Below are positions 2,544 through 63,153 of a stretch of 64,000 bases of DNA, piece by piece. The DNA is from an uncultured Candidatus Saccharibacteria bacterium (GTDB lineage: Bacteria > Patescibacteriota > UBA1384 > JAGVHQ01). Where the stretch lies: the NCBI GenBank assembly GCA_964362865.1, contig CAYIGD010000002.1:4253-68252 (forward strand), in the 5' to 3' direction. Position 1 is the stretch's first letter, and each line of letters opens with the position of its first letter. The notes under the pieces were generated by a model. That model was given only the letters and a program-made list of their open reading frames with translations. It did no database searches and was not told the origin of the DNA. A program made the translations under genes and the position numbers.

Positions 2544-3059
2544 ATGCACGCAATGATTAAGATTCGCTTTTTTCCGCGGAAAGCATTTACGCTTGTTGAA
2601 CTATTAGTTGTTGTCGCTATAATTGCACTTCTCGCATCACTCATACTTTTTGTCGTCAGCGGGGCAAGGGCAAAAGCGCGCGACAGCGTACGTAAATCGG
2701 AAATCAGCCAGATCGGACAATTCATGTCTCTCTCGTGTTTTGTGCCCCAAGCGGGCGCGGGCGAGTACGACCTAGCAGAAATCGCCCAAGAACTGAAAAC
2801 AAAATACACGGGTTTTGAGCGGTTGTTTAAGAGAATCCCGAAAGACCCGCGGATTGGTACGGATGCACAAACATTTTACCGTTATCTGGTAACTGACGGG
2901 GGTTCTGGTTGCGCGATGTACGCCAATTTAGAAAACAAAAATGAGCCAGTCACGTTGCCCGAACTTACGAACCCTACCGCCGGCGGTGGAAAGGGAGTAT
3001 TCCAGGCAGCCGTTGAGGGCTGGAATAATTCTGACCGCTTTTTTCAGGACTCTAACTAA
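2544..3059 (+). CDS. Type IV pilin / pseudopilin-like protein with a prepilin N-terminal methylation domain
   Basis: Short basic leader followed by FTLVELLVVVAIIALLASLI, with Glu at +5 of the mature protein. Ala rather than Gly sits at -1. Two Cys residues lie in the C-terminal half. The stop codon overlaps the leuS ATG (TAATG). Confidence 0.6.
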   Translation: MHAMIKIRFFPRKAFTLVELLVVVAIIALLASLILFVVSGARAKARDSVRKSEISQIGQFMSLSCFVPQAGAGEYDLAEIAQELKTKYTGFERLFKRIPKDPRIGTDAQTFYRYLVTDGGSGCAMYANLENKNEPVTLPELTNPTAGGGKGVFQAAVEGWNNSDRFFQDSN

Positions 3060-6178: not shown

Positions 6179-6860
6179 AATCGAACCGTTTCAAAAAAAG
6201 ATTCGGCACGCGTTCCGCGATCCAATGCTTTTGCTGCAGGTATTTTTACATCGTTCGTATCTGAATGAGCATCGTGATTTTCAACTTGAGCATAACGAAC
6301 GACTCGAGTTTTTAGGGGATGCCGTTTTGGAGCTGATTGTAACTGAACACCTGTATCTTACATACCCTAATCCTGAGGGTGAGCTTACTAACTGGAGAAG
6401 CGCTTTGGTAAAAGGCGAAACTCTTTCGGAAGTTGCGCGCGAGCTTGGGATCGAAGAATACCTCCTACTTTCAAAGGGAGAATCCAAGAGCCATGGTAAG
6501 GCACGGCAACTCATATTAGCCAACGCGTTTGAAGCATTGGTAGGGGCGCTTTATTTGGACGCGGGATTTAAAGGAACAAAAAGCTTCATCAAGCGCGTAT
6601 TGATCGTGCGCCTGGAAGAAATCTTCTCAAAGCAGCTTTATATTGACCCCAAAAGTAAATTACAAGAATTAATGCAAGAATTGCGCGGTCAGACTCCACT
6701 GTATCGCGTCTTAAAAGAAATCGGGCCGGATCATAATAAAGTATTTACTGTCGGCGTGTATGTTAAGCGTGAATTACTTGGAAAAGGTGAAGGTGCTTCA
6801 AAGAATAAAGCGCAGCAAGCAGCGGCAAAAATAGCACTTGATAACTTTGAACGCAATTAG
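6150..6860 (+). CDS. rnc: Ribonuclease III
   Basis: RNase III signature ERLEFLGDAVLEL plus a C-terminal dsRBD (KSKLQELMQE...GEGASKNKAQQAAAKIAL). The start is placed at an internal ATG (6150/6153) because the longer ORF overlaps nusB. Confidence 0.9.
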   Translation: MMLKTELLTKIEPFQKKIRHAFRDPMLLLQVFLHRSYLNEHRDFQLEHNERLEFLGDAVLELIVTEHLYLTYPNPEGELTNWRSALVKGETLSEVARELGIEEYLLLSKGESKSHGKARQLILANAFEALVGALYLDAGFKGTKSFIKRVLIVRLEEIFSKQLYIDPKSKLQELMQELRGQTPLYRVLKEIGPDHNKVFTVGVYVKRELLGKGEGASKNKAQQAAAKIALDNFERN

Positions 6861-18426: not shown

Positions 18427-19698
18427 TTACGAAAACGTATCGTACGTGCGCATCACGACTTGGGCCTTGAGTTGGCGGGTGGTTTCGATAATAACGGAAA
18501 CCAAAATAAGAATACTAGTCCCACCCAGCACCAGAGTCTGGACCTTCGTGAGTGACTGTACAATAAACGGCAGAACCGCAACCAGCGCGATAAATAACCC
18601 CCCCAAAGTGGTAATGCGGATTAAGCTCGTGCGCAGATACGTGGCAGTCTCGTTCCCGGGCCGGATGCCGGGGATGAACCCCCCCTGTTTTTGGAGATTT
18701 TCCGCCACCTGAGGGGGCTGGAAGACAACGAATGTATAGAAAAAAGTAAACGCAAAAACAAACACGAAATACAGGATTCCATATACGGTTTGATTTTCAA
18801 GCAATCGCGTGAGCGTGTTCGCGGCATTCGCAATCCATTCGGTTTTAGCTAGAGCAAAGAAGCGCGCGACTACGGTTGGGAAGATCAACATTGAAAGCGC
18901 AAAAATAATCGGGATTACGCCGGCGGAATTCACCTTGAGCGGAATATGGGTATTCACGCCCGCCCAACTGCGTTGCCCTCTTACTCGGCGGGCATACGTT
19001 ACCGGAATTTGGCGTTCGCCCTGCGTAATAAATACAATCGCGGCGACCGTTGCGATCCCGATTGCGGCAAACGCAACCAGGCCAAAAATTTTACCGGTAT
19101 CCACAACCGCCAATGTATTGCGTACTTGAGTTGGGAGGCCGGACACGATCCCGAGCGCGATTAACATCGAGATTCCATTGCCAATACCGTTTTCAGAAAT
19201 AATTTCTCCAAGCCACATTAAAAGCATGGTCGTGGCGGTCGTGACCGCGAGCATGGTTGCGATCTGGATTCCATCCCATTCTGGCAGGATCCCTTGCTGT
19301 CGGAATAAAAGCAATGTTCCGATCCCTTGTAAGATCGCCATCGGAACGGTTAGGAGCCGCGTGTATTGGGTGATTTTTTTGCGGCCAAACTCCCCTTCTT
19401 TCTGGAGCGCCTCGAGCGATGGGACCACGTAGGTCATCAGCTGCACGACAATCGATGCGGTAATATAGGGGCCGACTCCCATCAACATGATTGAGAAATT
19501 ACTGAGTGTCCCGCCCGAGAAGAGATCCAGTAATCCAAAAAGCTGGTTTTGGGAGAAAAATTGTGAAAGTTGGCGGATGTCCACGCCCGGCAAAGGAACG
19601 TGCGCAATAAAGCGGGTTAAAATAAGAATCCCGACCGTTATCAGGGCTTTGCGCCGCAGGTCAGGTAAGCGCCAGATTTTGACAAGGAAATTGAACAT
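18427..19698 (-). CDS. secY: Preprotein translocase subunit SecY
   Basis: 423 aa, 10-TM SecY pattern with an N-terminus of the form L...DLRRK-L-T-L-L--R and a C-terminus ending RTYDTF. Confidence 0.93.
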   Translation of the reverse strand: MFNFLVKIWRLPDLRRKALITVGILILTRFIAHVPLPGVDIRQLSQFFSQNQLFGLLDLFSGGTLSNFSIMLMGVGPYITASIVVQLMTYVVPSLEALQKEGEFGRKKITQYTRLLTVPMAILQGIGTLLLFRQQGILPEWDGIQIATMLAVTTATTMLLMWLGEIISENGIGNGISMLIALGIVSGLPTQVRNTLAVVDTGKIFGLVAFAAIGIATVAAIVFITQGERQIPVTYARRVRGQRSWAGVNTHIPLKVNSAGVIPIIFALSMLIFPTVVARFFALAKTEWIANAANTLTRLLENQTVYGILYFVFVFAFTFFYTFVVFQPPQVAENLQKQGGFIPGIRPGNETATYLRTSLIRITTLGGLFIALVAVLPFIVQSLTKVQTLVLGGTSILILVSVIIETTRQLKAQVVMRTYDTFS

Positions 19699-19708
19699 AT
19701 ATCAAGAA

Positions 19709-20335
19709 TCAATTATACCCGAACAGAGTTTCGTTTACACTGGATGCGCTCTTTCTGCCAAACTCGGGAGCACGTTCGTAGCGGGGGTGTTGCGATCTAT
19801 ACGCAGTATTGAGTGCGATAATTTCAGATAGCTCTTTACGCTGCAGCTTATTTTTTGAAAACGGCGTACTCGGGTATCCCACCGCTAATAAAACAATCAC
19901 GCGCCCGCTATGGGGTATTCCGATCAGCTCGGCGATTGGTTTTTGTTTAAATCCGGCAATTTGATTAACGATTAAACCGCGCTCAAGCGCTGCGAGTGTG
20001 AACGCCATAACAGCCGCGCCTACATCGTATAAATAAAATAAGGTGTTGCCGATACGGTCGTCAAAAGCCGGATCTGACCAGACGGCAATCATAAGCGGTG
20101 CCTCTGCCCCCCATTCGTTTCCCGGATGAAGATTTTCATGAATTTTCGTGCGCACCGGTTTATCTCGGAGTATTACAAATCGCCACGGTTGTGTGTTGTG
20201 GGATGAGGGTGCCCATTGTGCGGCTTCAAAAAGTGCTTTCATGACAGATTTCAGCGGAATTCTTGTCAAAAAAAATCGTGAGCGAACCCTTTGCTTCAAA
20301 ATTGTGGGCAGCCCCAGGCGCGCTCGCACTCGCAT
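19709..20335 (-). CDS. Nitroreductase-family protein (NAD(P)H-flavin oxidoreductase-like) inserted between rplO and secY
   Basis: RVRSRFF...PLKSVMKALFEAAQWAPSSHNTQPWRFVIL is the nitroreductase N-terminal signature (RRS-R-F ... A-SS-N-QPW-F). The ATG at 20333-20335 sits 4 nt after the rplO stop. Confidence 0.7.
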   Translation of the reverse strand: MRVRARLGLPTILKQRVRSRFFLTRIPLKSVMKALFEAAQWAPSSHNTQPWRFVILRDKPVRTKIHENLHPGNEWGAEAPLMIAVWSDPAFDDRIGNTLFYLYDVGAAVMAFTLAALERGLIVNQIAGFKQKPIAELIGIPHSGRVIVLLAVGYPSTPFSKNKLQRKELSEIIALNTAYRSQHPRYERAPEFGRKSASSVNETLFGYN

Positions 20336-20339
20336 ACGT

Positions 20340-20750
20340 TTAGACCCGCTGCGCGTGCTTTTTAGTAAGTTTGATATGCTCTCCCAGTGTGAATCCGGTG
20401 GGAAGCGGTCCGCCAATCAGCTTCACTGCACTTACGCTTGTTTTAAGCAGGCCGGCTTGGCGTAATTTTTCGAGCGTAACTTGAGTAGGCTTTAATTTTT
20501 GGGTGAGCGCTTGGATCGTCACCGCAATCGGTTTTGTGCCTTGGCGCATCTGCCGCGAGAGTGAGCCGCGTTTTTTAGGGATTCTACGGATCAGGGGGGT
20601 TTGCCCGCCTTCAAACCGCGCAGATACCCTATATCGGGCTCTTTGACCTTTGGTACCTCGTCCGGCAGTTTTACCTTGCCCGGCTGCAATCCCCCGCCCG
20701 ACCCGGACCCTATTTTTTATTTGTCTTTTTGGAAGCTCGGTTAGATTCAT
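20340..20750 (-). CDS. rplO: 50S ribosomal protein L15
   Basis: [24 protein letters not shown] matches L15. Confidence 0.9.
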
Positions 20751-21276
20751 GTTTCTCTTCTTTCTGCTTTTGATTTTTAGCTTTCACGGTAACGCGTTGC
20801 GTTGGATTTTGATATGCGATGCGGGATTTTTCAGGTCGAAACGAAAGCAGCGCCTGTTGGGTGGCCCGAATCGTATTCAATTTATTTGAAGATCCCATAC
20901 TCTTCGTAATAATGTTTTTAATCCCGGCCACTTCCGCAATCGCCCGCACCGGGCCTCCCGCGATCACCGATGTTCCTGCTCTGGCGGGTTTTAACATGAC
21001 GGTCACGCCAGAAAAGAAACCAGTTGTCGGATGTGGGATTGTACCAGCGTGAAGCGGGATTGAAAACAGACTTCGCTTTGCTTGGGTAAAGGCTTTTTTT
21101 ACGGCAGCTTGCACTTCCGCCGCCTTTGCCACGCCGATCCCGACTGAACCTTGATGGTTACCAATCACAACGACGGCACGGAAACGGATCCGTCGACCGC
21201 CTTTTACGGTGCGAGCGACACGATTGATTTCGATCACTCGCTCTTCAAACTCTGGTTTTTCGGGTGAATCTTGCAT
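20710..21276 (-). CDS. rpsE: 30S ribosomal protein S5 (with Lys-rich C-terminal tail)
   Basis: [42 protein letters not shown] matches S5. Start chosen at MQDSPEK just after the rplR stop. The tail is [24 protein letters not shown]. The 3' end overlaps rplO by about 41 nt. No rpmD (L30) lies between. Confidence 0.9.
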
Positions 21277-21283
21277 TTTACTC

Positions 21284-21607
21284 CTATATCGTAAGGCCCG
21301 TGCTACGCGCCCCGTCGCAAATTCGTTGTACGTTGCCATGGTATGCGCGTGCTCCGCGGTCGAATACAACGCGTGTAATTTTTTTGGCAAGTGCTGCTTT
21401 ACCAATCGTCTCCCCAAGCTTAGTTGCCGCTTGGGCGGCTTCGCCTTTGGCGGGACGCACCAGTTGCGCGGCTAAGACCCGACCACCGTGATCGATTACT
21501 TGTGTATAGAAACTCCGGTTTGAAATTGTGACTACAAGGCGCGGGTAGAGCGCGGATTTAGCCCGCGCACGAACTTTTTGTTTTCGTCGAATACTTGAAA
21601 AACTCAT
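21284..21607 (-). CDS. rplR: 50S ribosomal protein L18
   Basis: RKQKVRARAKSALYPRLVVTISNRSFYTQVID...RVVFDRGARAYHGNVQRICDGAR matches L18. Confidence 0.9.
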   Translation of the reverse strand: MSFSSIRRKQKVRARAKSALYPRLVVTISNRSFYTQVIDHGGRVLAAQLVRPAKGEAAQAATKLGETIGKAALAKKITRVVFDRGARAYHGNVQRICDGARSTGLTI

Positions 21608-32982: not shown

Positions 32983-33396
32983 TTACGCTCGCTTGGCGCC
33001 GTACAGGGAACGACCCTGTTTGCGATCTTTTACGCCTTCTGTATCGAGTTTACCGCGTACAATGTGGTAGCGCACACCCGGAAGGTCCTTGACCCTACCA
33101 CCGCGAATCAGCACCACAGAGTGCTCTTGTAAGTTATGCCCAACACCTGGAATGTAGGCCGTGACTTCAGTGCCGGATGTTAAACGTACCTTGGCGATTT
33201 TGCGTAACGCCGAGTTTGGTTTTTTGGGCGTAATCGTGGTTACCTTGATGCATACTCCCCGCTTGAGGGGCGCACCAATCCTGTTCCAAGTAGACCGGTT
33301 TTTCATAAAATTCATCCCACGCTTAAGAGCGGGCGTCGCCGGGGCTGCGACGATCCGTTTTCGTCCCTTACGAATTAACTGTGCAATGGTTGGCAT
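32983..33396 (-). CDS. rpsL: 30S ribosomal protein S12
   Basis: [12 protein letters not shown]...[19 protein letters not shown]. The start shares 1 nt with the rpoC stop. Confidence 0.95.
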
Positions 33397-36300
33397 CAGC
33401 GTGTTCCGTGGATCGCTTTTTTACGAGCACTGCTCGGGTCAAAACCGGTACCCGCGGGAATTAATTTTCCAATAATCACATTTTCCTTCATTCCGTTGAG
33501 GTGGTCAACCGCCCCCCGTGCGGCGGCCTCAATCAACACTCCTGTGGTTTCTTGGAAGCTCGCGGCGGAAAGGAAACTCTGGGTTTTTAAAGAAACGCGC
33601 GTAATGCCCATCACGACGTCTTCAACTTGCACAAGCCGGCGCCCCTTTTTTGTAAGCTCTGCGTTGACAATCCCGGCATGCAGACTGTCAATAATTTGCC
33701 CAGGTAGAAACTCGGAATCGCCTTCGTCGGTCACGCGCACTTTTGAAAACATTTGACGTACGATCATCTCAATGTGTTTCGGGTTGATTGTTTGCCCCTG
33801 GGAAGAATAAATCGAAAGCACGTCATTGATGATATAGGCTTGCGTCGCAACTCGACCGCGGAACTTGAGTGATTCCCCGAGGTCAAAGTGACCATCAGTT
33901 AATTGCTGCCCGATGCCAACGACGTCGCCGTCTTTGACAAGCACAGTTTCGTTTGCCCTGAGCGGGAAACTGATTGACGTAAATTCCGAAGAAATAACCT
34001 TTATCTGGCGTTCTTTCACACGAACTGTCCCGGGAATTTTGGTTCGGATTGCCTTGGCGTCTTTGGCATTGCCCAGTATTTGCTTGGCTACAACCGGCGC
34101 GCCGTTTTTGACGGTTATTTCGTAGCCTTCGGGGATTTCATATACTTCTTCCATTTTTTGGTTCGTGACGATTTGGAGTGTTCGACGTCCTTTTTCGGTA
34201 AAGATTTTAACCGTTCCGGCGATTTGCGCGAGTGTCGCCGGATTCTGTGGGGTACGCGCTTCGAATAATTCCTCGACCCTCGGCAGACCACTCGTGATGT
34301 CTTCGCCGACGACACCGCCCGAGTGGAACGTTTTCATCGTCAACTGCGTACCTGGTTCGCCGATCGCTTGCGCAGCCATAATTCCGACTGCTTCACCGTG
34401 CTTTACCATCTCTCCTGTGGCCAAATCGCGCCCATAACAATTTTGGCAGACGCCCCACCGGGCTTGGCAATAGAGGATCGAACGCACGATTACATCAAAG
34501 GGCTCGTTCGTGTTCAGCTGCCGTAGGCGTTCTTCTGAAATCAAAGTGTTAGCGGGGACGATCGTTTTACGAGCGAGCATTATCGGTTTGACCGTGACTC
34601 GGTCAATAAGGTGACGGAAATGCTTCGGATCAGCATGGAACCGAAGCCCCTCTTTTGTTCCACAATCCTCTAGGGCAACGACCATATCCTGCGAGACGTC
34701 CACAAGGCGGCGCGTAAGATATCCCGCATCTGAGGTTCGAAGCGATGTATCAGATTTTCCCTTGCGCGCTCCATGGGTGGAAATAAAGTATTCAAACACG
34801 CTCAATCCTTCGCGATAGTTGGATTTAATTGGTAATTCAATGATCTCTCCGGCAGGGTTTACCACGAGGCCTTTCATACCGCCGAGCTGCGTGACCTGGG
34901 TTACGGAGCCACGGGCACCGGACAACATCATGACGTTTACCGGGTTATGCAAGTTAAACAGAGCAAGCATTTCTTTTTCGATTTTCGCCCGAGCACTTGT
35001 CCATTGTTCGATGATTTTCAGGCGACGCTCATGATTGGTAATCAGTCCGCGGCGATATTGCATTTCGATTTCTTCTACGAGTAGATCGGTTGCCTTGATG
35101 ATCTCGCTTTTTTTGGCTGGAACATTGATATCTGAAATCGAAATCGTCATTCCTGAGAGAGTCGCGTGTCGGAAGCCGACCTTTTTAATCTCATCACTGA
35201 CAGTGGTTGTGGCTTCGGCGCCTTCTGTTTTGAAAATGTGTTCTACCAGCTCACGCAACGACTTCGAATCCATAGCATAGTTTCGAAAACGTGCAGATTT
35301 CGGCAGAATTGCATTCAAGATAATGCGCCCGATACTCGTTTCGACTAAATCACCTGCTTTTACTTCTGGGTCGGGAGAATTTTCTTTGGTGATAAAGCCA
35401 TCCTCTAGTCGAACCTTAATTGACGCCCGTACATGTAGTTGCCCATTTTGATAGGCAAGCATTGCCTCATCACTGGAAGCAAAAGTTCTGCCGTTACCTT
35501 TGACACCGTCTTCGATCGTCGTGAGGTAATAGCAGCCAAAGACAATGTCCAAACGTGGGGTAATCACAGGTTCACCGGAGGCGGGTTTTAATACGTTTTT
35601 AGTGGAAAGCATGATGTCGCGCGCTTCTATATGTGCCTGCTTGGAAAGCGGGACATGTACTGCCATCTGGTCTCCGTCAAAGTCGGCGTTAAAAGCGTAA
35701 CAAACCAGAGGATGCAGCTGGATTGCTTTTCCTTCGATCAATACTGGTTGAAAGGCCTGGATTCCCAACCGGTGTAAGGTTGGGGCGCGGTTCAAGAGTA
35801 CGTATTGTTCGGAAGTGATCCGTTCAAGAATATCCCATACTTCTGGTGTGGCACGCTCGATCAGGCGCGTAGCGTTTTTAACGTTGTGGACATACCCTTC
35901 GGAAATCATTTTAGAGATGACAAACGGTTTGAATAGTTCAAGCGCCATGCCCTTGGGTAATCCGCACTGGTGCAATTTAAGGTTCGGGCCGACTACAATC
36001 ACCGAGCGTCCGGAATAGTCAACGCGTTTTCCTAAAAGGTTTTGACGGAATCGGCCTTGTTTACCGCGTAGCATGTCCGAAAGTGAACGCAGTTTGCGCT
36101 GAGCAGCTGTTGTCGAGACTGCTTTGCCCCGGCGTACACTGTTATCAATTAGGGCATCTACTGCCTCCTGCAACATACGTTTTTCATTGCGGCAAATGAC
36201 ATCTGGTGCGCCCAGAGAAATCAGTTTCTTCAAGCGATTATTGCGGTTGATGACACGTCGGTAAAGGTCGTTCAGGTCGGAGGCGGCAAATCGCCCTCCG

Positions 36301-37214
36301 TCTAGTTGGACCATTGGCCGCAGATCCGGGGGGATCACTGGCAGGCGCGTCGTAATCAGCCATTTCGGATCGATTTTTGCCTTTAGCATATCCTTAAGGA
36401 CCCGGATACGTTTCAAGATCCGGCGGCGCTGGCTTCCTTGGGAGTTCTCGACTTCCTTTTCCAAATTGCGCACGACCTCAACAAAATCTATATCTTTAAG
36501 GAGTTGATGGAAGGCCTCTGCCCCGATCCCGACCTTGATAATTGAGCCGTACTTCAAACTGATTTCATGGTAGCGCTGCTCAGTAATGATTTTATATTTA
36601 GCAAGCGAAGTGATCTCATTTTTTGTAGTTCGGTACATCCCTTCGAGCTCGGTGAGAGGAGTTGATTGTTTAAGGTCGGGTTTTGCAGTTGCGTGGTTGT
36701 TTTTTAATCTGCCGCGCAGTTCGCGATATTCATTTTCCAACTGGCTCAGCGCCTCGGTGCGGATTGTCTCGTCTACTGCCAGAACGATAAATCCGGCAAA
36801 GTAAATCACTTTCTCCAGATCATTAACCGAAAGATTGAGCGCTAGACCAAGAATAGACGGTACGCTACGTACAAACCATACATGAGCAACAGGGACGGCA
36901 AGCTCAATGTGTCCCATACGTTCTCGGCGTACGGCCGCTCGAGTTACTTCGACGCCGCATTTATCACAGATGACACCTTTGTAACGAATTTTTTTATATT
37001 TACCGCAATAACACTCCCAGTCTTTAATCGGTCCGAAGATGCGTTCGTCAAACAGGCCGTCGCGTTCTGGTTTTTGTGTGCGGTAGTTAATTGTTTCCGG
37101 CTTTGTGACTTCGCCGTAAGACCAGTTATACACATCTTCGGGGGACGCAATCGAAATTCGTATCGCGTTGAAATCAGCAACACGCGTGTCCTGGCGGGTC
37201 AGAGTTTCTTGCAT
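33396..37214 (-). CDS. rpoC: DNA-directed RNA polymerase beta' subunit
   Basis: 1272 aa. The catalytic [12 protein letters not shown] motif is present as [19 protein letters not shown], and a zinc-binding N-terminus is present. Confidence 0.98.
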
Positions 37215-40200
37215 TATGCCTCCTCCACCGGTTCGGATACCGGTTCTGGTTCGTCAAGTTTCAACTCGGTTAGTTCCCGGTCTAACGTTTCTTCCTGGTC
37301 CTCCTCATGTTCCGGTGTCGCTCGTGCAGACGCCCGGACGGCTTTGGGCTTCTCTTCTGCTCCAATTTTGGTTGAACCCTGCTGGGAAAGGAGCTCGATG
37401 TTCAACCCTAAACTTTGCAATTCGCGGGTTAAGACGAAGAACGAGGCTGGGACGGAAGGCTTCTGGATTTCCTCGCCCCGGATAATTGCCTCATACGCTT
37501 TACTGCGTCCGATGACATCATCTGATTTCAGGGTGAGCATTTCCTGCAGCGAATGAGCTGCCCCATATGCTTCAAGTGCCCAGACTTCCATCTCGCCAAA
37601 GCGTTGGCCGCCGAACTGCGCCTTGCCTCCCAAAGGTTGCTGGGTTACCATAGAATATGGTCCGGTGGAGCGGGCATGCATTTTGTCGTCCACTAAATGG
37701 TTCAATTTCATCATGTAAATGATGCCGACCGTTGTCTTTTGGTCAAACGGTTCTCCGGTGCGGCCGTCGCGGAGCTGAATTTTTCCGGTCTCGGGCAGAC
37801 CCGCTTTTTTGAGCTCGGCTTCGATCTGATTCACGCTCACGCCTTCAAAAACCGGAGTCGCAACCTTGTAATTAAGCGCTTGCGCGGCCCATCCTAAATG
37901 GGTTTCGAGGATCTGCCCGAGGTTCATGCGAGAGACGACTCCCAAAGGGTTCAATACGATATCAACGGGGGTACCATCTGGCAAATATGGCATCTCTTCC
38001 TCGGGGAGGATCACTGAAATCACACCTTTATTCCCGTGACGGCCGGCGAGTTTATCCCCCACTGAAATTTTTCTCAGTTGTGCAACTGAGATTTGAATCA
38101 TTTGATACACACCGGAAGAGAGCTCGTCCCCCTGGTCTTTCGAGAAGAGTTTGATGCCGACGACTTTTCCCCGTTCCCCGTGCGGCAATCGCAGCGACGT
38201 GTCTTTGACGTCCTTTGCTTTTTCGCCGAAAATTGCCCGCAGCAGCTTCTCTTCGGCGGACAACTCGGACTCTCCTTTCGGAGAGATTTTACCGACCAAG
38301 ATGTCGCCCGCGGATATTTCTGCGCCGATTCGAATCACACCCACCTCATCAAGGTTTGCAAGCGCCTCGTCCCCCACGTTTGGAATATCGCGCGTGACGA
38401 TTTCCGGCCCTAACTTCGTGTCCCGTACCTCAATGGAATATTCTTCAATGTGAATTGAGGAGAAGCGGTCATCTTTAACCAAACGCTCGGAGATCGCGAT
38501 TGCGTCTTCGAAGTTGGTACCCCAGAAAGACAAAAACGCAACGAGTACATTTTGCCCCAACGCGAGCTCGCCCCCGTCCACGGAAGCCCCGTCCGCAATT
38601 ACGTCATTCTTTTTTACTTTGTCTCCCACGTAAACGATCGGAGTTTGATTCATGCATGTTGCTTGATTAGAACGGACAAATTTCTCGAGTTTTTGGCGGT
38701 GGATTTTACCGGATTTGTCGCTTAAGTGGATTTCATTGCCATCCACGTAGCGCACTAAACCGTCAAAGGGGGCGACGCATACCTGACCTGAATTTTGAGC
38801 GGCTGTCGCTTCCAGTCCGGTACCCACTAAAGGAGCCGAGGCGCGCACGAGCGGTACTGCTTGGCGTTGCATGTTGGAACCCATCGAGGCGCGGGTGGCG
38901 TCGTCATGCTCGACAAACGGAATGAGTCCGGTTGTAACCGAAACAATTTGGCACGCTGAAACGTCAATATATTGAATCTTTTCTACTTTTTCTTTGGATG
39001 GCTTACCGAACTTTCGCACAACCACCCTTGCTTCAGTGATGTACCCATCCTTATCTACGTGAGTGGAAGCAGGCGCGATAATATAGCGTTCTTCCTCCAT
39101 TGCGTCCATATAGACAATTTTTTTCGTAAGGCGCGGTTTGTGGCCTGGTTTTTGAACGACCTCCAGATATGGTGTTTCTATAAAACCGTATTCATTTACC
39201 TTGCCGTACGTTGCGAGATATCCAACTAATCCAATGTTTGGACCTTCGGGAGTTTCAATCGGGCATACACGACCATAGTGTGAAGCGTGGACATCGCGCA
39301 CTTCAAAGCCGGCTCGCTCGCGGGAAAGGCCACCCGGACCGGTAGAAGAAAGTGTCCGCTTATGCTCCAATTCAGCCAGGGGGTTGGTTTGGTTCATAAA
39401 TTGGGAGAGCTGTGAGGAAGCAAAGAACTCTTGCAGGACTGCCGCAACCGGGCGGGAGTTTACCAGCTGCGCCGCGGTTACTGTTAAGGGGTCTACGACG
39501 CTCATGCGGTCGCGAATAATGCGCTCCATTCTTAAGAATCCAACTCGTAACCGGGCTTGTACAAGTTCCCCAACAGCCCTCACGCGGCGATTGCGTAAAT
39601 GGTCGATATCATCCGGCTGGGCGGTGGGGTCATTATTAAGGCGAATTACCTCTTTCACGATTTCAATGATGTCTTCGAGTCGAAGGATGCGGTCGCGGGC
39701 AGAATCTTTACCGGCAAGATTGAGCCGTTGGTTTAGCTTATAGCGGCCTACCTTACCGAGGTCGTAGCGTTTCGGATTGAAGAAAAGGGCTTCGAGGAAC
39801 GTTTTTGCGGTATCAGCGGTGGTGAGGTCTCCGGGGCGAATACGCTTATAGACTTCCGTGAAGCTTTCCGCGCGTGTTTTTGCGGGATCTTTTAAAAGCG
39901 TTGCCTTGATGTAATCGTGGTCAGCATTGTCGTTGACATCTTTGAAGGTATTGAGAATACTTTCGTCTTTTTCGAGTCCAAGTGATTTTAAAAATGTGGT
40001 AATCGGAATTTTCCGTTTCCGATCAACTTTGACGGAGATGATATCGCGGTTTGAAGTCTCAATTTCGAGCCAAGCGCCACGGGCCGGAATGAGTTTTGCG
40101 CCGAATAACGTTCGCCCAGCAGATTCTTCGCCCGTAAACAGCACTCCATACGAGCGCACAATCTGAGAAACCACGACCCGTTCGACACCGTTAATAATAA

Positions 40201-40549
40201 AGGTCCCGCGGTTCGTCATAACCGGGAAATCACCAAGAAAGATGGCAGATTCTTTTTGCTTCCCGGTTACTTTATTATAAAGAATCGCTTTGCACTTTAA
40301 GGGCGCTTTATAGGTGAGGTTTTTTTCCCGGGCAGTCGTTTCGTCTACGCGGGGCGCTTCAAGGGCATAATCGCCGAATTCAAGACGTAAGTTTTTTCCC
40401 GTAAAATCATCAACTGGAGAGATTTCGTTAATAATCTCTCGAATACCCTCGTCAAAGAGCCATCGGTATGAATCAAGCTGCAGTTGAATAAGGTTGGGAA
40501 AGGAAATGTTCGTTTTCCCTTCTTTCCCTTGAGAGAAGTATTTGCGCAT
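37214..40549 (-). CDS. rpoB: DNA-directed RNA polymerase beta subunit
   Basis: 1111 aa, collinear with bacterial RpoB (rifampicin cluster region [33 protein letters not shown]). Confidence 0.98.
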
Positions 40550-40722: not shown

Positions 40723-41679
40723 TTATAATTTTTCGCGCACGTACAGCTCTCGAATCCCTTGTTTTAATTGAGTAATTCCCCGATGAGTTTTACTAGAAAC
40801 TATGTAGTCGTGCGCGATTTTCGGGGGGGTGTGAACAAGATCACTCTTTGTGATGACCACTATATATGGACGGCGGATTAAGATGGGGGAAAAGGTGCGC
40901 AGCTCCTGTTTTAAGACCTTGAATTGATCTTGTAAATCATCTTGGGTAGCGTCAAAAACATATACGAGGGCCCGGGTGCGCTCTATATGCTTCAGAAACC
41001 GGATTCCGAGTCCCTTTCCGGTTGATGCGCCGCCAATTAAGCCTGGAATATCAGCGATTACAATCCGAGGGCGACCTTCCAGTACACCGAGGCTGGGTCG
41101 GATTGTAGTAAACGGGTAGGCACCAACCTCCGGGTGGGCGTTTGTTAACGCGGTGATTAGGGAAGATTTCCCCGCGTTCGGGAATCCGACAAGACCAACA
41201 TCGGCGAGCAGTTTCAGCTTTAGTTCCAGCGTGCATTTTTCGCCCTTACCCGGTGGACGCGATTCTCGCGGTGCTCGGTTAGTTGAAGAGCGAAAATGGC
41301 GATTTCCCAATCCCCCCGCCCCCCCGCGGACAACTAAAAGTCTTTCGCCCGTATGGATCAGGTCGGAACGTATGCCGTTTCCCGATATTTGTGTCCCGAT
41401 TGGAACGGGAATGATCAGATCAGGCGCATTCGCGCCGGTTTTGTTGGAAGATCCGCCGTTTTCACCATTTTGGGCCTTAAAATGTCGAATTCGTACACAA
41501 TTATCGAGCGAGGTTAGGGATGAGTTCACTTCAAGAAACACATCGCCGCCTTTACCCCCGTCGCCGCCGTCTGGCCCGCCTCGGGGGACAAAGCGTTCAC
41601 GTCGAAATGAAACACAACCCATCCCTCCCGTGCCAGCGCTGAGCTCAATCTGCGCTTCGTCAATTAAGCGATATGCCAT
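40723..41679 (-). CDS. obg: GTPase Obg (short form lacking a C-terminal extension)
   Basis: Gly-rich Obg fold (GGPDGGDGGKGGDV) plus G-domain motifs GFPNAGKSSL, DIPG and TKSD. Only 318 aa. Confidence 0.9.
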   Translation of the reverse strand: MAYRLIDEAQIELSAGTGGMGCVSFRRERFVPRGGPDGGDGGKGGDVFLEVNSSLTSLDNCVRIRHFKAQNGENGGSSNKTGANAPDLIIPVPIGTQISGNGIRSDLIHTGERLLVVRGGAGGLGNRHFRSSTNRAPRESRPPGKGEKCTLELKLKLLADVGLVGFPNAGKSSLITALTNAHPEVGAYPFTTIRPSLGVLEGRPRIVIADIPGLIGGASTGKGLGIRFLKHIERTRALVYVFDATQDDLQDQFKVLKQELRTFSPILIRRPYIVVITKSDLVHTPPKIAHDYIVSSKTHRGITQLKQGIRELYVREKL

Positions 41680-58427: not shown

Positions 58428-59012
58428 CTAGGGTAAACCGGCAATAATCTGACGGTGTGTTTTTCGGGGTGCAATTTGAGACGCCTCGAAAAGAAACGCT
58501 TCTGCCACAAAACGCTCGGCAGCCTTACGTGAAATTCCGCGCGATTGAAGATAAAAAAGGTACTCGGGATTGATCGGAGCGGCAGTGGCGGCATGCGAGG
58601 CCTTCACCTCGTTTGCTTCGATCTCGAGCGACGGGAAAGCATTTGCGCTCGCCCCCTCGCTTAAAATGAGCGAGTCCTGGCGTAGAAAATCAACGGAGTG
58701 TTGGGCCTGTTTTTCTATTTTAATCATTCCTGCAAAATCAAATTGTGCTGTGTCAGTGACAATTGCCTTTACAAGCGTTTCACTTTTGGTATGGGGGGCT
58801 TTGTGAACTGTATCAACGCGTAGCTTCAGCTCGTTTTGCCCGTTGAGTACTCCCGCTCCGAAGACGCGGCACTGCGCGGCTTCCGCTTTCAGAACTAGCG
58901 TACAACTAAAATTACCGCTAAGTCCAGTAAACGGGATAAAGAAATCCACGGGATTCTGATCGGTAATCGTAATTGTTTGTGAGGGTTTGCTCAGTGCGAG
59001 TACTTTAACCAA
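58428..59012 (-). CDS. sufD: Fe-S cluster assembly protein SufD (short form)
   Basis: SufB/D C-terminal beta-helix. Gene order is sufC-sufB-this-sufS. Only 194 aa. Confidence 0.7.
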   Translation of the reverse strand: MVKVLALSKPSQTITITDQNPVDFFIPFTGLSGNFSCTLVLKAEAAQCRVFGAGVLNGQNELKLRVDTVHKAPHTKSETLVKAIVTDTAQFDFAGMIKIEKQAQHSVDFLRQDSLILSEGASANAFPSLEIEANEVKASHAATAAPINPEYLFYLQSRGISRKAAERFVAEAFLFEASQIAPRKTHRQIIAGLP

Positions 59013-60414
59013 CGCTACCTTCCATTTCCAACAAGATTAGGCGGTTGAGCTCGATGGCGTACTCAAGCGGTAAGGTTTTCACGATCGGCTCAATGAAGCC
59101 GTTGACGACCATCGCGGATGCCTCCGTTTCCGAAAGACCCCTCGAGCGCAGATAAAACAGCTGTTCATCCCCGATTTTACTGACGGTTGCCTCGTGTCCG
59201 ATTGTAACGTTTTTAGCGCGTACCTCAATCGTGGGGTAGGTATCGGAACGGCTTAGCTTGTCCAAGATTAAGGCGTCGCAACGCACTGTTGAGCGCGCGC
59301 TGTCGGCTTGGGGCGTGATATGGAGCAAGCCGCGATATGAGGTGCGTCCACCGCCTTTAGAGATTGACTTAGAGGTAATAAGCGAGGTTGTTTCAGGTGC
59401 GACGTGAATTGCCTTGCCGCCGGCGTCTTGATGCTGACCCGCTCCCGCAAACGCGAGCGATAATACCTCGCCGTGTGCCTTGCGGCCCACCAAATATACA
59501 CTGGGGTATTTCATCGTAACCCGAGAGCCCAAATTCCCGTCAATCCACTCCATAACGCCTTCTTCTTCCACCCGGGCGCGCTTAGTGACAAGGTTGTACA
59601 CATCTTTCGACCAGTTTTGAATCGTAGTATAACGCACTCGCGCGCCTTTTTTGACAAAGATTTCCACTACGGCCGCGTGTAAAGAGTCCGAGGCATAAAC
59701 GGGCGCGGTACAACCCTCGACATAGTGCACGGATGAGCCCTCTTCCGCGACAATCAGGGTCCGCTCAAACTGCCCCATATTCTTGGCGTTAATGCGGAAA
59801 TAAGCCTGGAGCGGTAATTCAACATGCACGCCTGAGGGAATGTACACAAACGATCCGCCTGACCACGCGGCTGAGTTGAGTGCCGCAAACTTATTGTCGG
59901 AAGCTGGAATGAGCTTTCCAAAGTACTGCTGTACGATTTCCGGGTGTTCGCGCAAGCCGGAATCCATGTCGGTAAAGATCACTCCCTGTTTAGAAAGTTT
60001 CTCGTGCACGGAGTGGTAGATCACTTCCGAGTCATACTGCGCGCCCACACCGGCTAGGTATTTTTGTTCGGCCTGAGGAATTCCCAGCCGGTCGAAAGTG
60101 CGTTTCATGCTTGAAGGGACGTCATCCCACGATTTAAGCTGAACGGAGACTGGTTTGAGGTAGTAGAAAATGGTGTCGAAGTTGATTCGCGAAAGATCAG
60201 CGCCCCAAGTGGGCATTTGTTTAGCCTGAAAGGTTTGATAGCTTTGCAAGCGAAACGCCCTCATCCATGAAGGCTCATGCTTGTGGTTCGAGATTGACTC
60301 GACCACGGTACTCGAAAGCCCACGGGGGGCTTTATACACCGATTCCTCAGGTTCGTTAAAACCGAAGCGGTACGTATCGAGTTCGGCAGCGATTTTGTTC
60401 TGGATGCTTTTCAT
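59005..60414 (-). CDS. sufB: Fe-S cluster assembly protein SufB
   Basis: 469 aa, SufB family with a conserved C-terminus (NGFIEPIVKTLPLEYAIELNRLI). Confidence 0.92.
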   Translation of the reverse strand: MKSIQNKIAAELDTYRFGFNEPEESVYKAPRGLSSTVVESISNHKHEPSWMRAFRLQSYQTFQAKQMPTWGADLSRINFDTIFYYLKPVSVQLKSWDDVPSSMKRTFDRLGIPQAEQKYLAGVGAQYDSEVIYHSVHEKLSKQGVIFTDMDSGLREHPEIVQQYFGKLIPASDNKFAALNSAAWSGGSFVYIPSGVHVELPLQAYFRINAKNMGQFERTLIVAEEGSSVHYVEGCTAPVYASDSLHAAVVEIFVKKGARVRYTTIQNWSKDVYNLVTKRARVEEEGVMEWIDGNLGSRVTMKYPSVYLVGRKAHGEVLSLAFAGAGQHQDAGGKAIHVAPETTSLITSKSISKGGGRTSYRGLLHITPQADSARSTVRCDALILDKLSRSDTYPTIEVRAKNVTIGHEATVSKIGDEQLFYLRSRGLSETEASAMVVNGFIEPIVKTLPLEYAIELNRLILLEMEGSVG

Positions 60415-61157
60415 CAGCTAATTTTTTGCTCTGCAAGCTGCGCATAACCGGTTTTTTCAAGTTTTTTAGCAAGTCCAAATGTTCCTGAGCGCACGATTGT
60501 CCCACGCAACATAATATGTACAAAATCGGGTTTGATAAAATTGAGCAGCCGCTGGTAGTGCGTAATCAAGACAATTGCGCGCTTTGCACTACGCAAAGCG
60601 TTAATCCCGCTCGCAACGGTGCCAAGCGAATCAATATCCAGCCCGGAGTCGGTTTCGTCTAAAATCGCGTACGCGGGTTCCAGTACGGCCATCTGCAGGA
60701 TTTCGTTGCGCTTTTTCTCTCCACCCGAGAAGTTTTCGTTCAGGGAACGCTCGATGAAGTCGTCTTTAATGTGCAAAGGGCGCGCTTTTTCTTGAACCAA
60801 GCGGCGCAGTTTAATGGGAGTAAGCTTTTCTTTTTTGAGCGAATTGTAGGCAAGGCGTAAAAAAGCGGTAATGCTGACTCCCGGGATTTCAATGGGGTAC
60901 TGAAATCCCAAAAATAAGCCCAGTTGGGCGCGCTTCTCAGGCATTAGGCGGTTGATTATTTTTCCATCCAAGATGATTTTCCCCTTAGTAATCGCGTAAC
61001 TTGGATGTCCCATGAGTACGTGTGCCAAGGTTGATTTACCGCTCCCATTCGGGCCCATGATCGCGTGCACTTCACCCTTGTTCACCGTAAGGTCAAGCCC
61101 ATGCAGGATCGCTACTTTTCCTGCGCTTACGTGCAGGTTGGAAATCGCTAGACTCAT
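60414..61157 (-). CDS. sufC: Fe-S cluster assembly ATPase SufC
   Basis: Walker A GPNGSGKST, ABC signature FSGGEKKR and Walker B AILDETDSGLD. Confidence 0.93.
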   Translation of the reverse strand: MSLAISNLHVSAGKVAILHGLDLTVNKGEVHAIMGPNGSGKSTLAHVLMGHPSYAITKGKIILDGKIINRLMPEKRAQLGLFLGFQYPIEIPGVSITAFLRLAYNSLKKEKLTPIKLRRLVQEKARPLHIKDDFIERSLNENFSGGEKKRNEILQMAVLEPAYAILDETDSGLDIDSLGTVASGINALRSAKRAIVLITHYQRLLNFIKPDFVHIMLRGTIVRSGTFGLAKKLEKTGYAQLAEQKIS

Positions 61158-61396
61158 TTTTTTTCAGGTTGCTTTGTATTTTTCTCAACTGCCTGGTTTA
61201 TTTCCTCTAACATTTCGTCTACCTCTTGGTCGCTCATCCCGTGCAGTTTGGCCCCGTTTTCCACGCTATCAAACCGATTCGCAAAACAACCCACACAATG
61301 CAGGCCATATTCCAGCATTACTTTTGCGGCCTCGGGGTGTTTGGCGGCCAGCTCCCCCAGATTTTGCTCCCGTTTAATCTCTAGCATCTCTATCAC
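61154..61396 (-). CDS. DUF1858-type redox-disulfide small protein (hybrid-cluster-protein-associated domain)
   Basis: 80 aa with a GLHCVGC motif. Overlaps the sufC start by 4 nt. Confidence 0.6.
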   Translation of the reverse strand: MIEMLEIKREQNLGELAAKHPEAAKVMLEYGLHCVGCFANRFDSVENGAKLHGMSDQEVDEMLEEINQAVEKNTKQPEKK

Positions 61397-61522
61397 AACT
61401 CTACCTTAAAATAAGGCAAGTAGCCAATCAAAGCAGCGTCATACGAACCTAGAGATTCCTCAATAACTAACCATGGGATATACTGAAAAAGATTTCCAAC
61501 GACCTTTGATAAGGGGTGAGAA

Positions 61523-62455
61523 ATGTCGACATTGGTTTCCGATATTGGACGGGGGATATTCGGCGGTCAAATGTCGATATTCCTGTATGTGAAAAAGGGG
61601 GGGCGGCTCACTTTTTCGGTAGTTCGCTACCTAGGATTCATCGGTGTGCACCTACCGATGCTCTATGCCCTACTCTGGGTGCTCGACCGTGGCGGGTTAG
61701 AACGCAACCTAGGGGCTGCCTGGTGGGCAATGCTGTTCACCTTTATTGGGATGCGAGTGGGGATGTCACTTGCGGAGTACTTGTTCCACCGGGACATTCT
61801 CCACGCGGCTCCCTGGCCGTGGGTCAACCGCTTTTATAGAGCGCATGAACTCCATCATGCGCTCACGCCGGCCAAGGCCTACGCCATTGAGAAAGAAGAA
61901 CAACTCGAGGCGGCCGTGTTTCCCGCCTACACGCTCCTCGCGTTTTGGGCTGTGTTCAGTTGCCTGATTGTGCCAGGGCAACTGTTAATCCCTCAGGTCC
62001 CCATCTATCTCGGCGGATATATGGCGATCGTTTCGGCGCTGGTTGACTATGAGATCATGCACGCCGCCTTCCATCGGCCCTATGCGTGGTGGCAGCGGTA
62101 CCTGGAGCATTCCCTGCCCTGGGTGCGTTGGATGGCTGACCGAGCATACAAGTACCACCTCATGCACCATGAGTGCAATACGTGCAATGAAGCCATTGCC
62201 GGATGCGGCTATTACGCGGTCTGGGACAAGTGGTTCAAAACACTCAAGATGCCAAAACACCCGCTTGTGGAGGGCACACTCGATCCGCGCGAAGATCTCG
62301 AGGCGCCGATTGCCTCGAGATTTATCCGCAGGCTTGATTGTGCGGTAGCAATTCATCAAGCGATATGGAAGTTGGAAGAAAGTACGGGACAAAAGCTAAC
62401 CCGTGAGGAAAAAAGCAAAATTGTCGCACAAAAAAGAGTTCGCTGCGCGTTGTAG
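61523..62455 (+). CDS. Fatty acid hydroxylase / sterol desaturase superfamily integral membrane protein
   Basis: Hydrophobic N-terminal half with four His boxes: HRDILH, HELHH, HAAFH and HLMHH. A strong RBS (AAGGGGTGAG) lies 6 nt upstream of the ATG. A rho-independent terminator follows immediately. Confidence 0.7.
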   Translation: MSTLVSDIGRGIFGGQMSIFLYVKKGGRLTFSVVRYLGFIGVHLPMLYALLWVLDRGGLERNLGAAWWAMLFTFIGMRVGMSLAEYLFHRDILHAAPWPWVNRFYRAHELHHALTPAKAYAIEKEEQLEAAVFPAYTLLAFWAVFSCLIVPGQLLIPQVPIYLGGYMAIVSALVDYEIMHAAFHRPYAWWQRYLEHSLPWVRWMADRAYKYHLMHHECNTCNEAIAGCGYYAVWDKWFKTLKMPKHPLVEGTLDPREDLEAPIASRFIRRLDCAVAIHQAIWKLEESTGQKLTREEKSKIVAQKRVRCAL

Positions 62456-62471
62456 TGAGAAAGGGGTGTCG

Positions 62472-62503
62472 CGGCCGGGGCAGAGTGCCCCGGCCGTTTT
62501 TTT
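62472..62503 (+). terminator. Rho-independent terminator
   Basis: CGGCCGGGG-cagagtg-CCCCGGCCG followed by TTTTTTT. It also sits 3' of the convergent ferredoxin gene and could act bidirectionally. Confidence 0.7.
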
Positions 62504-62508
62504 ATTTG

Positions 62509-62751
62509 TTACGGATAGATCTGTTTACCGCTTTTATCTTTGAGGATAATCGCGTTCACCGGGCAGGATTGAGCTGCGTCGCGAATGGTTTTGGAATCCG
62601 CTCCATTTGGGTTTTTGACAATCGCAATTCCTTCACTGTCGAGCTCAAAAACGTCGGGCGCGATCGCCACACAACTGGCAGAGCCAATGCACAGCTTTCG
62701 ATCAACCTCAACCGAGCCGATTTCTTCAGAGTTCGCGCTGGGATCTGCCAT
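62509..62751 (-). CDS. Small ferredoxin (single [3Fe-4S]/[4Fe-4S] cluster type)
   Basis: 80 aa with CIGSASCVAIAPDVFE...CPVNAI, the Cys pattern of single-cluster ferredoxins. Confidence 0.8.
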   Translation of the reverse strand: MADPSANSEEIGSVEVDRKLCIGSASCVAIAPDVFELDSEGIAIVKNPNGADSKTIRDAAQSCPVNAIILKDKSGKQIYP

Positions 62752-63153
62752 CTAATCCTCGACGTTCACTGTGCCAATCGCCGACGGATTTAAGTGGTTA
62801 TGGTATCCGAACGAACCGACCTTGTCAAAGGTAAAAGAATAGGTAGCACCCGCTTGAAGTTCATCCGATTCAAATCCGCTCAATCCCGTATGAGCGGGGT
62901 GGGGGTTAGAGGCAACCTGCACCGTGCCGCCGTTGACGGTCCAGGTAACGGTTGTTTCCCTTTTCACGATAATGGTCGCAGGGTTAAAATTGTTGGATGT
63001 CGCACTCACTTCGTTTACAAATGCGTTTGGCTCTTGTTGTTCCTCGGTAGTAACTGGCCCCTCTAAAGTAGGATTACTGCGATTTTTGGCAAAAAACCAA
63101 ATCCCGACGGCCACAACAAGCACGATCACGATCACAAGCCATATTTTAGACAC
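62752..63153 (-). CDS. Membrane-anchored cupredoxin-like domain protein (no Cys ligand)
   Basis: N-terminal TM followed by the cupredoxin-type pattern FNPATIIV...TVTWTVNGG...H...GATYSFTF...GSFGYHNHLNPSAIGTVNV. His residues are retained but the type-1 copper Cys is absent. Its stop abuts the ferredoxin start. Confidence 0.45.
   Translation of the reverse strand: MSKIWLVIVIVLVVAVGIWFFAKNRSNPTLEGPVTTEEQQEPNAFVNEVSATSNNFNPATIIVKRETTVTWTVNGGTVQVASNPHPAHTGLSGFESDELQAGATYSFTFDKVGSFGYHNHLNPSAIGTVNVED

Follow-up and report, generated by a model that had tools for sequence, protein, structure and literature searches.

The window analysed here is a 64-kb stretch of contig CAYIGD010000002.1, belonging to a lineage of the Berkelbacteria, and the subject of this account is a gene near its right-hand end that encodes a predicted membrane oxygenase of the fatty-acid hydroxylase superfamily (referred to below as the hydroxylase). 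The region 61397-62508 consists of a 126-bp intergenic segment (61397-61522), one open reading frame (ORF) and a terminator. From position 6860 to the end of the window the hydroxylase ORF is the sole credible plus-strand gene, since all other plus-strand ORFs of at least 150 amino acids (aa) beyond that position sit within longer minus-strand ORFs; a preliminary description of this DNA, in which it was counted as the only plus-strand gene in about 55 kb, was right in this respect. The minus strand carries a tight run of core genes, including those for PheS/T, RpoA, methionine aminopeptidase, SecY, ribosomal proteins, EF-Tu, EF-G, RpoB/C, Obg, the c-di-AMP cyclase, IF-2, GyrA/B, sugar transferases and the SUF operon, and the genes beyond the hydroxylase ORF likewise lie on the minus strand. 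No tRNA and no Rfam match was found in the window. The gene and its elements are the following:

61397-61522, no strand: divergent intergenic region between the DUF1858/SUF genes (minus strand) and the hydroxylase gene (plus strand), site of an insertion/deletion (indel)
61477-61484, plus strand: GATATACT, putative promoter, roughly 39 nt upstream of the ATG, resembling a -10 element (TATACT)
61511-61520, plus strand: Shine-Dalgarno-like (SD) sequence AAGGGGTGAG, 2 nt before the ATG
61523-62455, plus strand: hydroxylase ORF, ATG start, TAG stop, 310 aa
61787-61804, plus strand: His box 1, HRDILH (HX4H; H89, H94), at the end of predicted transmembrane (TM) helix 2
61844-61858, plus strand: His box 2, HELHH (HX2HH; H108, H111, H112)
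62060-62074, plus strand: His box 3, HAAFH (HX3H; H180, H184), at the end of predicted TM helix 4
62156-62170, plus strand: His box 4, HLMHH (HX2HH; H212, H215, H216)
62471-62504, plus strand: intrinsic terminator, a hairpin followed by T7; stem-loop 62471-62497, 12-bp stem with 10 G-C pairs

The four histidine boxes that can be read from the sequence, HX4H, HX2HH, HX3H and HX2HH, are exactly those given in the preliminary description. Box 3 is preceded by the invariant residues Y176-E177, and box 4 is followed by the family motif N222-E-A-I-x-G227 and then by D235...T240. Within an alignment of 82 full-length representatives the residues H89, H108, H111, H112, Y176, H180, H184, H212, H215, H216 and D235 are invariant, and H94, E85, Q127, N222, G227 and T240 are nearly so; the window protein keeps every one of them. 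The earlier assignment to the fatty-acid hydroxylase family was upheld by the fold match to Scs7p described below and by the Pfam model PF04116 (FA_hydroxylase), which residues 77-240 match along profile positions 4-132 with 36.6 bits (cutoff 31; E 7.4e-9). The protein thereby passes the gathering threshold of a superfamily that also includes the sterol desaturases, C-4 methyl sterol oxidase, the CrtZ-type carotene hydroxylases and CER1. Given that the PF04116 match is marginal and that most relatives of the hydroxylase fail the Pfam model, the protein belongs, by sequence, to a peripheral FA_hydroxylase subfamily.

A scan of NCBIfam at E up to 1 recovered a single match, to NF047868, 'TrhA extension/companion domain-containing protein', covering model positions 3-260 of 269 at E 2.3e-46, and no carotenoid or sterol enzyme model. 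The hydroxylase has the ten histidines, the N-E-A-I-x-G and D...T motifs and a C-terminal P..P...LD element in common with this family. It differs from the members of NF047868 in several ways: it is a stand-alone protein lacking the TrhA domain, with no trhA gene in the window; it is found on a long separate branch, at 30-39% identity; and it has a lineage-specific N-terminal stretch of 30 residues and a C-terminal helical tail. By these comparisons the hydroxylase is a divergent relative of NF047868 within the FA_hydroxylase superfamily.

An AlphaFold2 model obtained with the 82-sequence alignment (predicted local distance difference test, pLDDT, 91.5; predicted template modelling score, pTM, 0.89) contains four long hydrophobic helices (33-54, 67-93, 137-155 and 161-183), with the His boxes at the helix ends and in the cap helices that follow, that is, a four-TM fold with a helical His-rich cap. 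The N-terminal 30 residues were poorly modelled. In a fold comparison the model matches Scs7p, with around 20% identity in the structural alignments. Sequence searches against the PDB returned nothing significant, as Scs7p appeared at E 3.1-6.3 with the family profile and was not matched with a smaller profile. An alignment of hidden Markov models (HMMs) to 4zr1 pairs all four boxes at identical spacing, together with a D..FGT motif after box 4. The box pairs of Scs7p and the hydroxylase are HRFLFH/HRDILH, HGCHH/HELHH, HFFLH/HAAFH and HLEHH/HLMHH, respectively. In box spacing (HX4H, HX2HH, HX3H, HX2HH in both; PDB 4zr0 and 4zr1) and in fold, the hydroxylase is most like the ceramide/fatty-acid 2-hydroxylase Scs7p/FA2H. 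The latter is a four-TM enzyme with a dimetal centre bound by its four His motifs, its electrons come from a cytochrome b5 domain or from a separate b5, and functional homologues occur in myxobacteria (PMC10002949). The cytochrome b5 domain is present in the animal and fungal enzymes and absent in plant FAH1/2, and in the hydroxylase Pfam detects none, FA_hydroxylase being its only match. Unlike what might go with Scs7p/FA2H, no sphingolipid genes were seen near the hydroxylase. A 99% identical allele on a 1442-bp ENA contig (P0001) has a Pro in place of the His at residue 89 (FPRDILH), which may be an error of sequencing or else an inactive variant that occurs naturally.

The gene carries its own candidate expression signals. 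The preliminary description had attributed to it a strong ribosome-binding site, and indeed AAGGGGTGAG is predicted to pair with a generic anti-SD sequence at a duplex energy of -8.5 kcal/mol, which ranks 5 of 44 genes; AGGAG is found at the same place in the orthologues. The GC-rich hairpin with a T7 tail, also mentioned there, was recovered as well. The 60 nt after the hydroxylase stop have a folding energy of -30.1 kcal/mol, and in two contigs from sister lineages (L001 and L167, see below) a hairpin plus T-run is found in the same position, with a different stem and loop sequence. A scan for consensus promoters gave no full -35/-10 site upstream of the hydroxylase. The octamer GATATACT, placed amid DNA that is otherwise unalignable, is also found upstream of the L001 and L167 orthologues, and we consider it a putative promoter element of the hydroxylase gene. 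In the explanation that we favour, the hydroxylase gene is intact, functional and a transcription unit by itself, and the -10-like element, the SD site and the terminator belong to it alone.

With respect to base composition, the GC content of the hydroxylase is 54.7%, against 50.2% for the window, and is the highest of the 49 ORFs (z 2.0). The GC content at third codon positions (GC3) is the highest of the 49 as well (0.640, z 3.2), and compared to the value of 0.539 that is expected from its own amino-acid content and the codon usage of the window, the deviation is somewhat larger (z 3.7). The preliminary description, according to which the gene looked GC-richer than its neighbours, was thus correct as far as the ranking goes, but the effect is modest: GC values of 54.3% and 54.5% are attained by two further ORFs, in GC3 the core gene sufB departs further from expectation (z 4.3), and in codon-usage distance, where at least 12 other genes exceed it (p ~0.04 controlling for length), the hydroxylase is no outlier. 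The L001 orthologue is also GC3-rich (0.656), as are several other L001 genes. The compositional signal is real but small, and it is not unique.

The closest genome in the databases is a metagenome-assembled genome (MAG) named Candidatus Berkelbacteria bacterium DeMMO2_25 (contigs L001 and L002). L001 aligns to the window at around 76% nucleotide identity over 8 kb, and the gene order is kept: on the minus strand PfkB, the cupredoxin-like protein, ferredoxin, then the hydroxylase on the opposite strand, followed by DUF1858, sufC, sufB, sufD and sufS. The contigs L167 and L171 represent a third lineage and show the same arrangement as the window and L001. The neighbours in the window that matter here are the following:

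59005-60414, minus strand: sufB, 469 aa, without LAGLIDADG_3
60414-61157, minus strand: sufC
62509-62751, minus strand: ferredoxin, 80 aa, single-cluster 4Fe-4S (Pfam Fer4_13 and Fer4_15), convergent neighbour of the hydroxylase
62752-63153, minus strand: cupredoxin-like protein, 133 aa, membrane-anchored (weak match, E 0.004)

In all three sampled lineages (the window, L001/L002 and L167/L171) the hydroxylase occupies the same position and strand, at a protein identity of 75-77%, a value within the 74-93% spanned by its neighbours. The L001 protein is 75% identical to that of the window, and the L001 neighbours are 67-93% identical to theirs. Judging from this conserved placement, the hydroxylase has been resident in the Berkelbacteria lineage since before the three sampled branches split. 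The ferredoxin gene, separated from the hydroxylase stop by 53 bp and located on the opposite strand, adjoins the hydroxylase in each of the three lineages; the cupredoxin-like gene directly upstream of it is conserved in the same three and may encode another redox protein.

The blastn alignment between L001 and the window stops at 61387 and restarts at 61519. Between DUF1858 and the hydroxylase the sister contigs carry an orphan ORF that is absent at 61397-61522 of the window:

L001, 6683-7564: orphan ORF
L167, 3147-4004: orphan ORF
L171, 884-1735: orphan ORF

The encoded protein has 283-293 aa and an N-terminal hydrophobic segment and is without a Pfam match. It is fast-evolving, with an amino-acid identity of 54-56% and a proportion of nonsynonymous differences (pN) of 0.32. 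Considering its presence in three sister contigs and its absence from the window, the locus is structurally variable at the gap between DUF1858 and the hydroxylase. With respect to the adjacent SUF genes, SufC of the sister lineages is 88-100% identical to that of the window, and the next match among 5.8 billion proteins, named Acidobacteria/Pyrinomonadaceae, is around 60% identical; as far as such matches tell, the Berkelbacteria lineage of the window is very isolated in public data. In a further sister-lineage contig (L168, 1234-3723) SufB has 829 aa and a LAGLIDADG_3 match inside the SufBD core, and it looks like an intein-containing SufB.

Comparison of the window and L001 hydroxylases yielded a pN of 0.138, a proportion of synonymous differences (pS) of 0.447 and a ratio of nonsynonymous to synonymous substitution rates (dN/dS) of around 0.22. 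For sufB and ferredoxin the dN/dS is 0.03-0.05. At the level of these gene comparisons purifying selection on the hydroxylase is clear, and it is weaker than on sufB or ferredoxin. No gene of the locus has a lower pS than the hydroxylase in any of the comparisons, that with L171 included:

Window versus L001: hydroxylase 0.447, flanking genes 0.61-0.78 (nine genes)
Window versus L167: hydroxylase 0.54, flanking genes 0.58-0.87
L001 versus L167: hydroxylase 0.21, flanking genes 0.29-0.70

In line with this, the window and L001 hydroxylases use the identical codon at 70% of their conserved residues, compared to 41-58% for the neighbours and 37% expected from codon usage. Along the locus the pS between L001 and L167 forms a mosaic (PfkB 0.29, cupredoxin-like protein 0.70, ferredoxin 0.33, hydroxylase 0.21, DUF1858 0.65, sufC 0.69), which suggests recombination among related Berkelbacteria populations. 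The low pS of the hydroxylase itself, as seen in three lineages, may reflect either an exchange of alleles later than the divergence of the flanks or constrained synonymous sites.

An exhaustive profile search of 1.84 billion representative proteins revealed that the family is small, 207 clusters being recovered at an E threshold of 1e-3 and 79 at one of 1e-30. A word-index protein search recovered three relatives with the single protein and five with the 82-sequence profile. Metagenome contigs were scanned with an 11-sequence alignment, and in these contigs and the 1.84 billion representatives the best identity outside the Berkelbacteria group was 39-40%. Two members are found in MAGs named 'Patescibacteria group bacterium' (P0027, MEK7583777.1, contig L085; and P0030, MEK7519322.1, contig L141), both from 0.1-µm groundwater samples, and the near branches P0021, P0032 and P0062 derive from contigs of 46-53% GC with a small-genome-like gene content. 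The metagenome scan further yielded a large clade of stand-alone proteins of around 276 aa on contigs of 63-71% GC. When one genome per GTDB species was scanned, one Berkelbacteria locus and 78 other loci (29-37% identity) were obtained, the latter in genomes named mostly Opitutales/Opitutaceae or other Verrucomicrobiota. The two short peptide patterns used for that scan came from an alignment of four sequences, one of which is closest to an Opitutales genome; the taxonomic picture of the scan is biased because the patterns were partly derived from an Opitutales sequence. On the basis of the sequences recovered, the family is small and patchy, and besides the Berkelbacteria it includes other Patescibacteria, high-GC soil bacteria and Opitutales.

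The gene tree is a distance-based neighbour-joining (NJ) tree and is poorly resolved. In it the Berkelbacteria pair has a long branch of its own and falls neither within the Opitutales clade nor within the high-GC soil clade. The sister in 100 bootstrap replicates was most often L085 (37), followed by P0024 (16), L083 (14) and P0036 (13), and in no replicate an Opitutales or soil-clade sequence; the gene was placed beside orphan branches of mid GC. Read in this way, the NJ tree rules out that the Opitutales were a recent donor and tells little beyond that.

A connection to TrhA is provided by the Verrucomicrobial relatives. In 44 of 75 Verrucomicrobial loci the domain is fused to TrhA/hemolysin III, in a protein of around 505 aa of which the N-terminal half is the hydroxylase-like domain and the C-terminal half is TrhA, as identified by PF03006 and the equivalog NF011669 'PAQR family membrane homeostasis protein TrhA'. 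No trhA lies within 10 kb of any of the 31 stand-alone Verrucomicrobial versions. TrhA belongs to the unsaturated-fatty-acid (FabR) regulon of E. coli and affects fatty-acid profiles and membrane energetics by a mechanism that is unknown (PMC9017321). By analogy, the TrhA fusion would point to a role of the family in membrane-lipid homeostasis, and it is the sole guilt-by-association evidence that does so.

With respect to the origin of the gene, the preliminary description had held lateral acquisition plausible and had proposed to trace the donor lineage by homology and phylogeny. A recent acquisition from a donor outside the Candidate Phyla Radiation (CPR), such as the Verrucomicrobia, would have left an un-ameliorated insert within a block of core genes. 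This could account for the highest GC and GC3 in the window, for the position as a lone opposite-strand gene with its own signals, for the Verrucomicrobial nature of the non-Berkelbacteria matches in the species-representative scan, for the adjoining indel and orphan ORF, and for the lowest synonymous divergence in the locus. Nevertheless, the same site is occupied in L001, L167 and L171, with synteny kept in three lineages at neighbour-like identity, and no integrase, tRNA or repeat was found at the borders of the hydroxylase, where the neighbours are SUF, DUF1858 and ferredoxin. The GC3 deviation is shared with sufB and the codon distance is unremarkable. A donor did not emerge either: the identity to proteins outside the group does not exceed 40%, the taxonomic outcome of the species-representative scan is affected by its partly Opitutales-derived patterns, and the bootstrap sister was never from the Opitutales or soil clade, a named Patescibacteria MAG being the commonest (37/100). 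Close vertical homologues throughout the lineage, which had been named beforehand as speaking against transfer, are found in the only relatives present in the databases (L001, L167 and L171). We consider a recent acquisition of this kind unlikely, and by sequence nothing at the locus looks like a foreign insert of recent date. What is left of the earlier proposal is an acquisition that was not recent, at which the patchy family, the variable orphan ORF and the lowest pS weakly hint; given the patchiness of the family and the variability of the locus, a transfer at some time seems likely. A different explanation is that the gene is resident and that recombination carries its alleles from one related Berkelbacteria population to another, the low pS then reflecting a later exchange of alleles. 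Such exchange would fit the difference in pS between the hydroxylase and its nine flanking genes in the comparison of the window to L001, the excess of identical codons, the lowest pS against L167 and L171 too, and the L001-L167 mosaic along the locus. On the other hand, selection on synonymous sites could lower the pS as well (by a GC3-rich codon preference or by antisense read-through from the minus-strand operons), the pN of the hydroxylase is as high as that of the least conserved neighbours, so that the gene is not simply 'younger', and the comparison covers three lineages. We regard allele exchange as a possibility to be entertained tentatively.

The alternatives concerning function start from the fact that hydroxylases and desaturases occur together in the superfamily and have their His boxes in common (PMC9485055, PMC11921677). 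The protein could in that case be an acyl-lipid or sterol-type desaturase, or a CrtZ-type hydroxylase of carotenoid or isoprenoid rings. Carotenoid genes have been described in some Patescibacteria (PMC9948471), and the link of TrhA/PAQR proteins to unsaturated-fatty-acid metabolism would suit a desaturase (PMC9017321). Yet NF047868 was the only family recovered from NCBIfam, to the exclusion of carotenoid and sterol models, no carotenoid or sterol genes were seen in the 64-kb window, and the third box, HX3H, is like that of Scs7p. The third box of CrtZ is HX4H, and enzymes of the ERG3/SUR2 type have three boxes. On balance we find another superfamily type rather doubtful. Still less probable, and in our view very unlikely, is that the oxygenase chemistry was lost in an oxygen-poor host, by which the protein would have become a zinc-type hydrolase or a lipid-binding or regulatory membrane protein. 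TrhA/PAQR proteins form a family of Zn-dependent lipid hydrolases, and the lineage is known from subsurface samples, to judge from the MAG and sample names; moreover, the Scs7p crystal contains two Zn ions (PMC10002949). However, the ten ligand histidines and the other invariant residues are all kept and the gene is under purifying selection, as a canonical catalytic centre predicts. The FA_hydroxylase superfamily is not known to include a member that is not an oxygenase.

The explanation we favour, and hold to be probable when taken as a whole, is that of a resident FA_hydroxylase-type dimetal membrane oxygenase that modifies lipid acyl chains. We are highly confident of the part that concerns the gene, its family, its fold and its residency. 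The more specific proposal, hydroxylation of lipid acyl chains with ferredoxin, is made by analogy and is offered as a tentative one. According to this proposal, the two His-rich cytoplasmic segments would form a di-iron centre atop the membrane helices, to which a soluble carrier would deliver the electrons. As the hydroxylase has no cytochrome b5 domain, the adjacent 4Fe-4S ferredoxin would be the obvious candidate for such a carrier. O2 would then be activated and the acyl chain of a membrane lipid would be hydroxylated, or possibly desaturated, in situ. The cyanobacterial DesA-type enzymes and Bacillus Des, of the FA_desaturase family, are acyl-lipid desaturases that take their electrons from ferredoxin. 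The likeness lies in the modification of acyl chains within the membrane by a His-box di-iron enzyme with ferredoxin as the donor, and in the case of the hydroxylase a ferredoxin gene is found next door. The identity of the metal, the dependence on O2, the electron donor, the substrate and the reaction type of the hydroxylase are predictions throughout. Patescibacteria have been reported to be without lipid biosynthesis (PMC9948471), and considering that report an in-membrane lipid-editing enzyme makes biological sense: it would give an organism that is believed to get its lipids from outside a way to retune them.

Several observations weigh against this explanation. For reaction and substrate the explanation extrapolates from a homologue of around 20% identity, and the family is without a characterised member. 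The NF047868 score of 158.6 bits is below the curated cutoff of 200 (the L001 orthologue scores 164.7 and Opitutales members score 380-460). The adjacency of the ferredoxin is limited to the Berkelbacteria lineage, and it is convergent, not operonic. Across 157 loci no functional partner was found to be conserved beside the gene, the comparison of neighbours yielding clade-level synteny and generic ABC ATPases only, and homologues of the ferredoxin, the cupredoxin or DUF1858 were not found beside other family members outside the Berkelbacteria. An HMM built from the 44 fused domains detected no TrhA-like ORF in the 64-kb window, in L001 or in L081-L086. Judging by one deep-mine MAG name and by sample names of a groundwater type, the lineage may live where oxygen is scarce, which would suit an O2-dependent enzyme poorly. 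Finally, Scs7p was crystallised with zinc, so that the metal cannot be assumed (PMC10002949).

Some further features of the window are worth recording. A nitroreductase-like ORF with the motif SHNTQPWRF (19709-20416, minus strand) is placed between SecY (18427-19698) and an ORF without annotation (20710-21417), and is an unusual passenger within a block of ribosomal-protein-sized ORFs. The ORFs 19709-20416 and 20710-21417 are equal in GC and were considered as duplicates, which was rejected as the sequences are unrelated. A 662-aa ORF at 38-2026 (plus strand; GC 54.3%) is without a Pfam match, and is followed by a small protein (2544-3059) with a prepilin-type N-terminal methylation motif. The rpoB-rpoC genes (33396-40549) are preceded by obg (40723-41679) and not by the usual L10-L7/L12 genes; in contig L082, which represents a small-genome-like bacterium and carries a member of the hydroxylase family, the L10/L12 pair is also detached from rpoB.

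In all, the hydroxylase gene is an ordinary, if divergent, member of a well-known enzyme superfamily, and the indications of foreignness are weak. Its interest lies in the membrane biology of the CPR and in the link to TrhA, rather than in structural or mechanistic novelty. How CPR bacteria/Patescibacteria build and tune their membranes is an open question, and if the explanation given here is true, a lipid oxygenase would be among the few enzymes that let Patescibacteria modify lipids they have acquired, and O2 would then have to be accessible in at least part of the Patescibacterial niche. One may go further and combine a ferredoxin-fed, FA2H-like oxygenase for scavenged lipids with the coupling to TrhA into a conserved bacterial 'sense and modify' lipid module, analogous to the eukaryotic PAQR-desaturase axis; this joint reading is built on analogy and we consider it somewhat unlikely. 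The frequent fusion to TrhA does offer a concrete handle on the unexplained mechanism of the bacterial PAQR proteins (PMC9017321).

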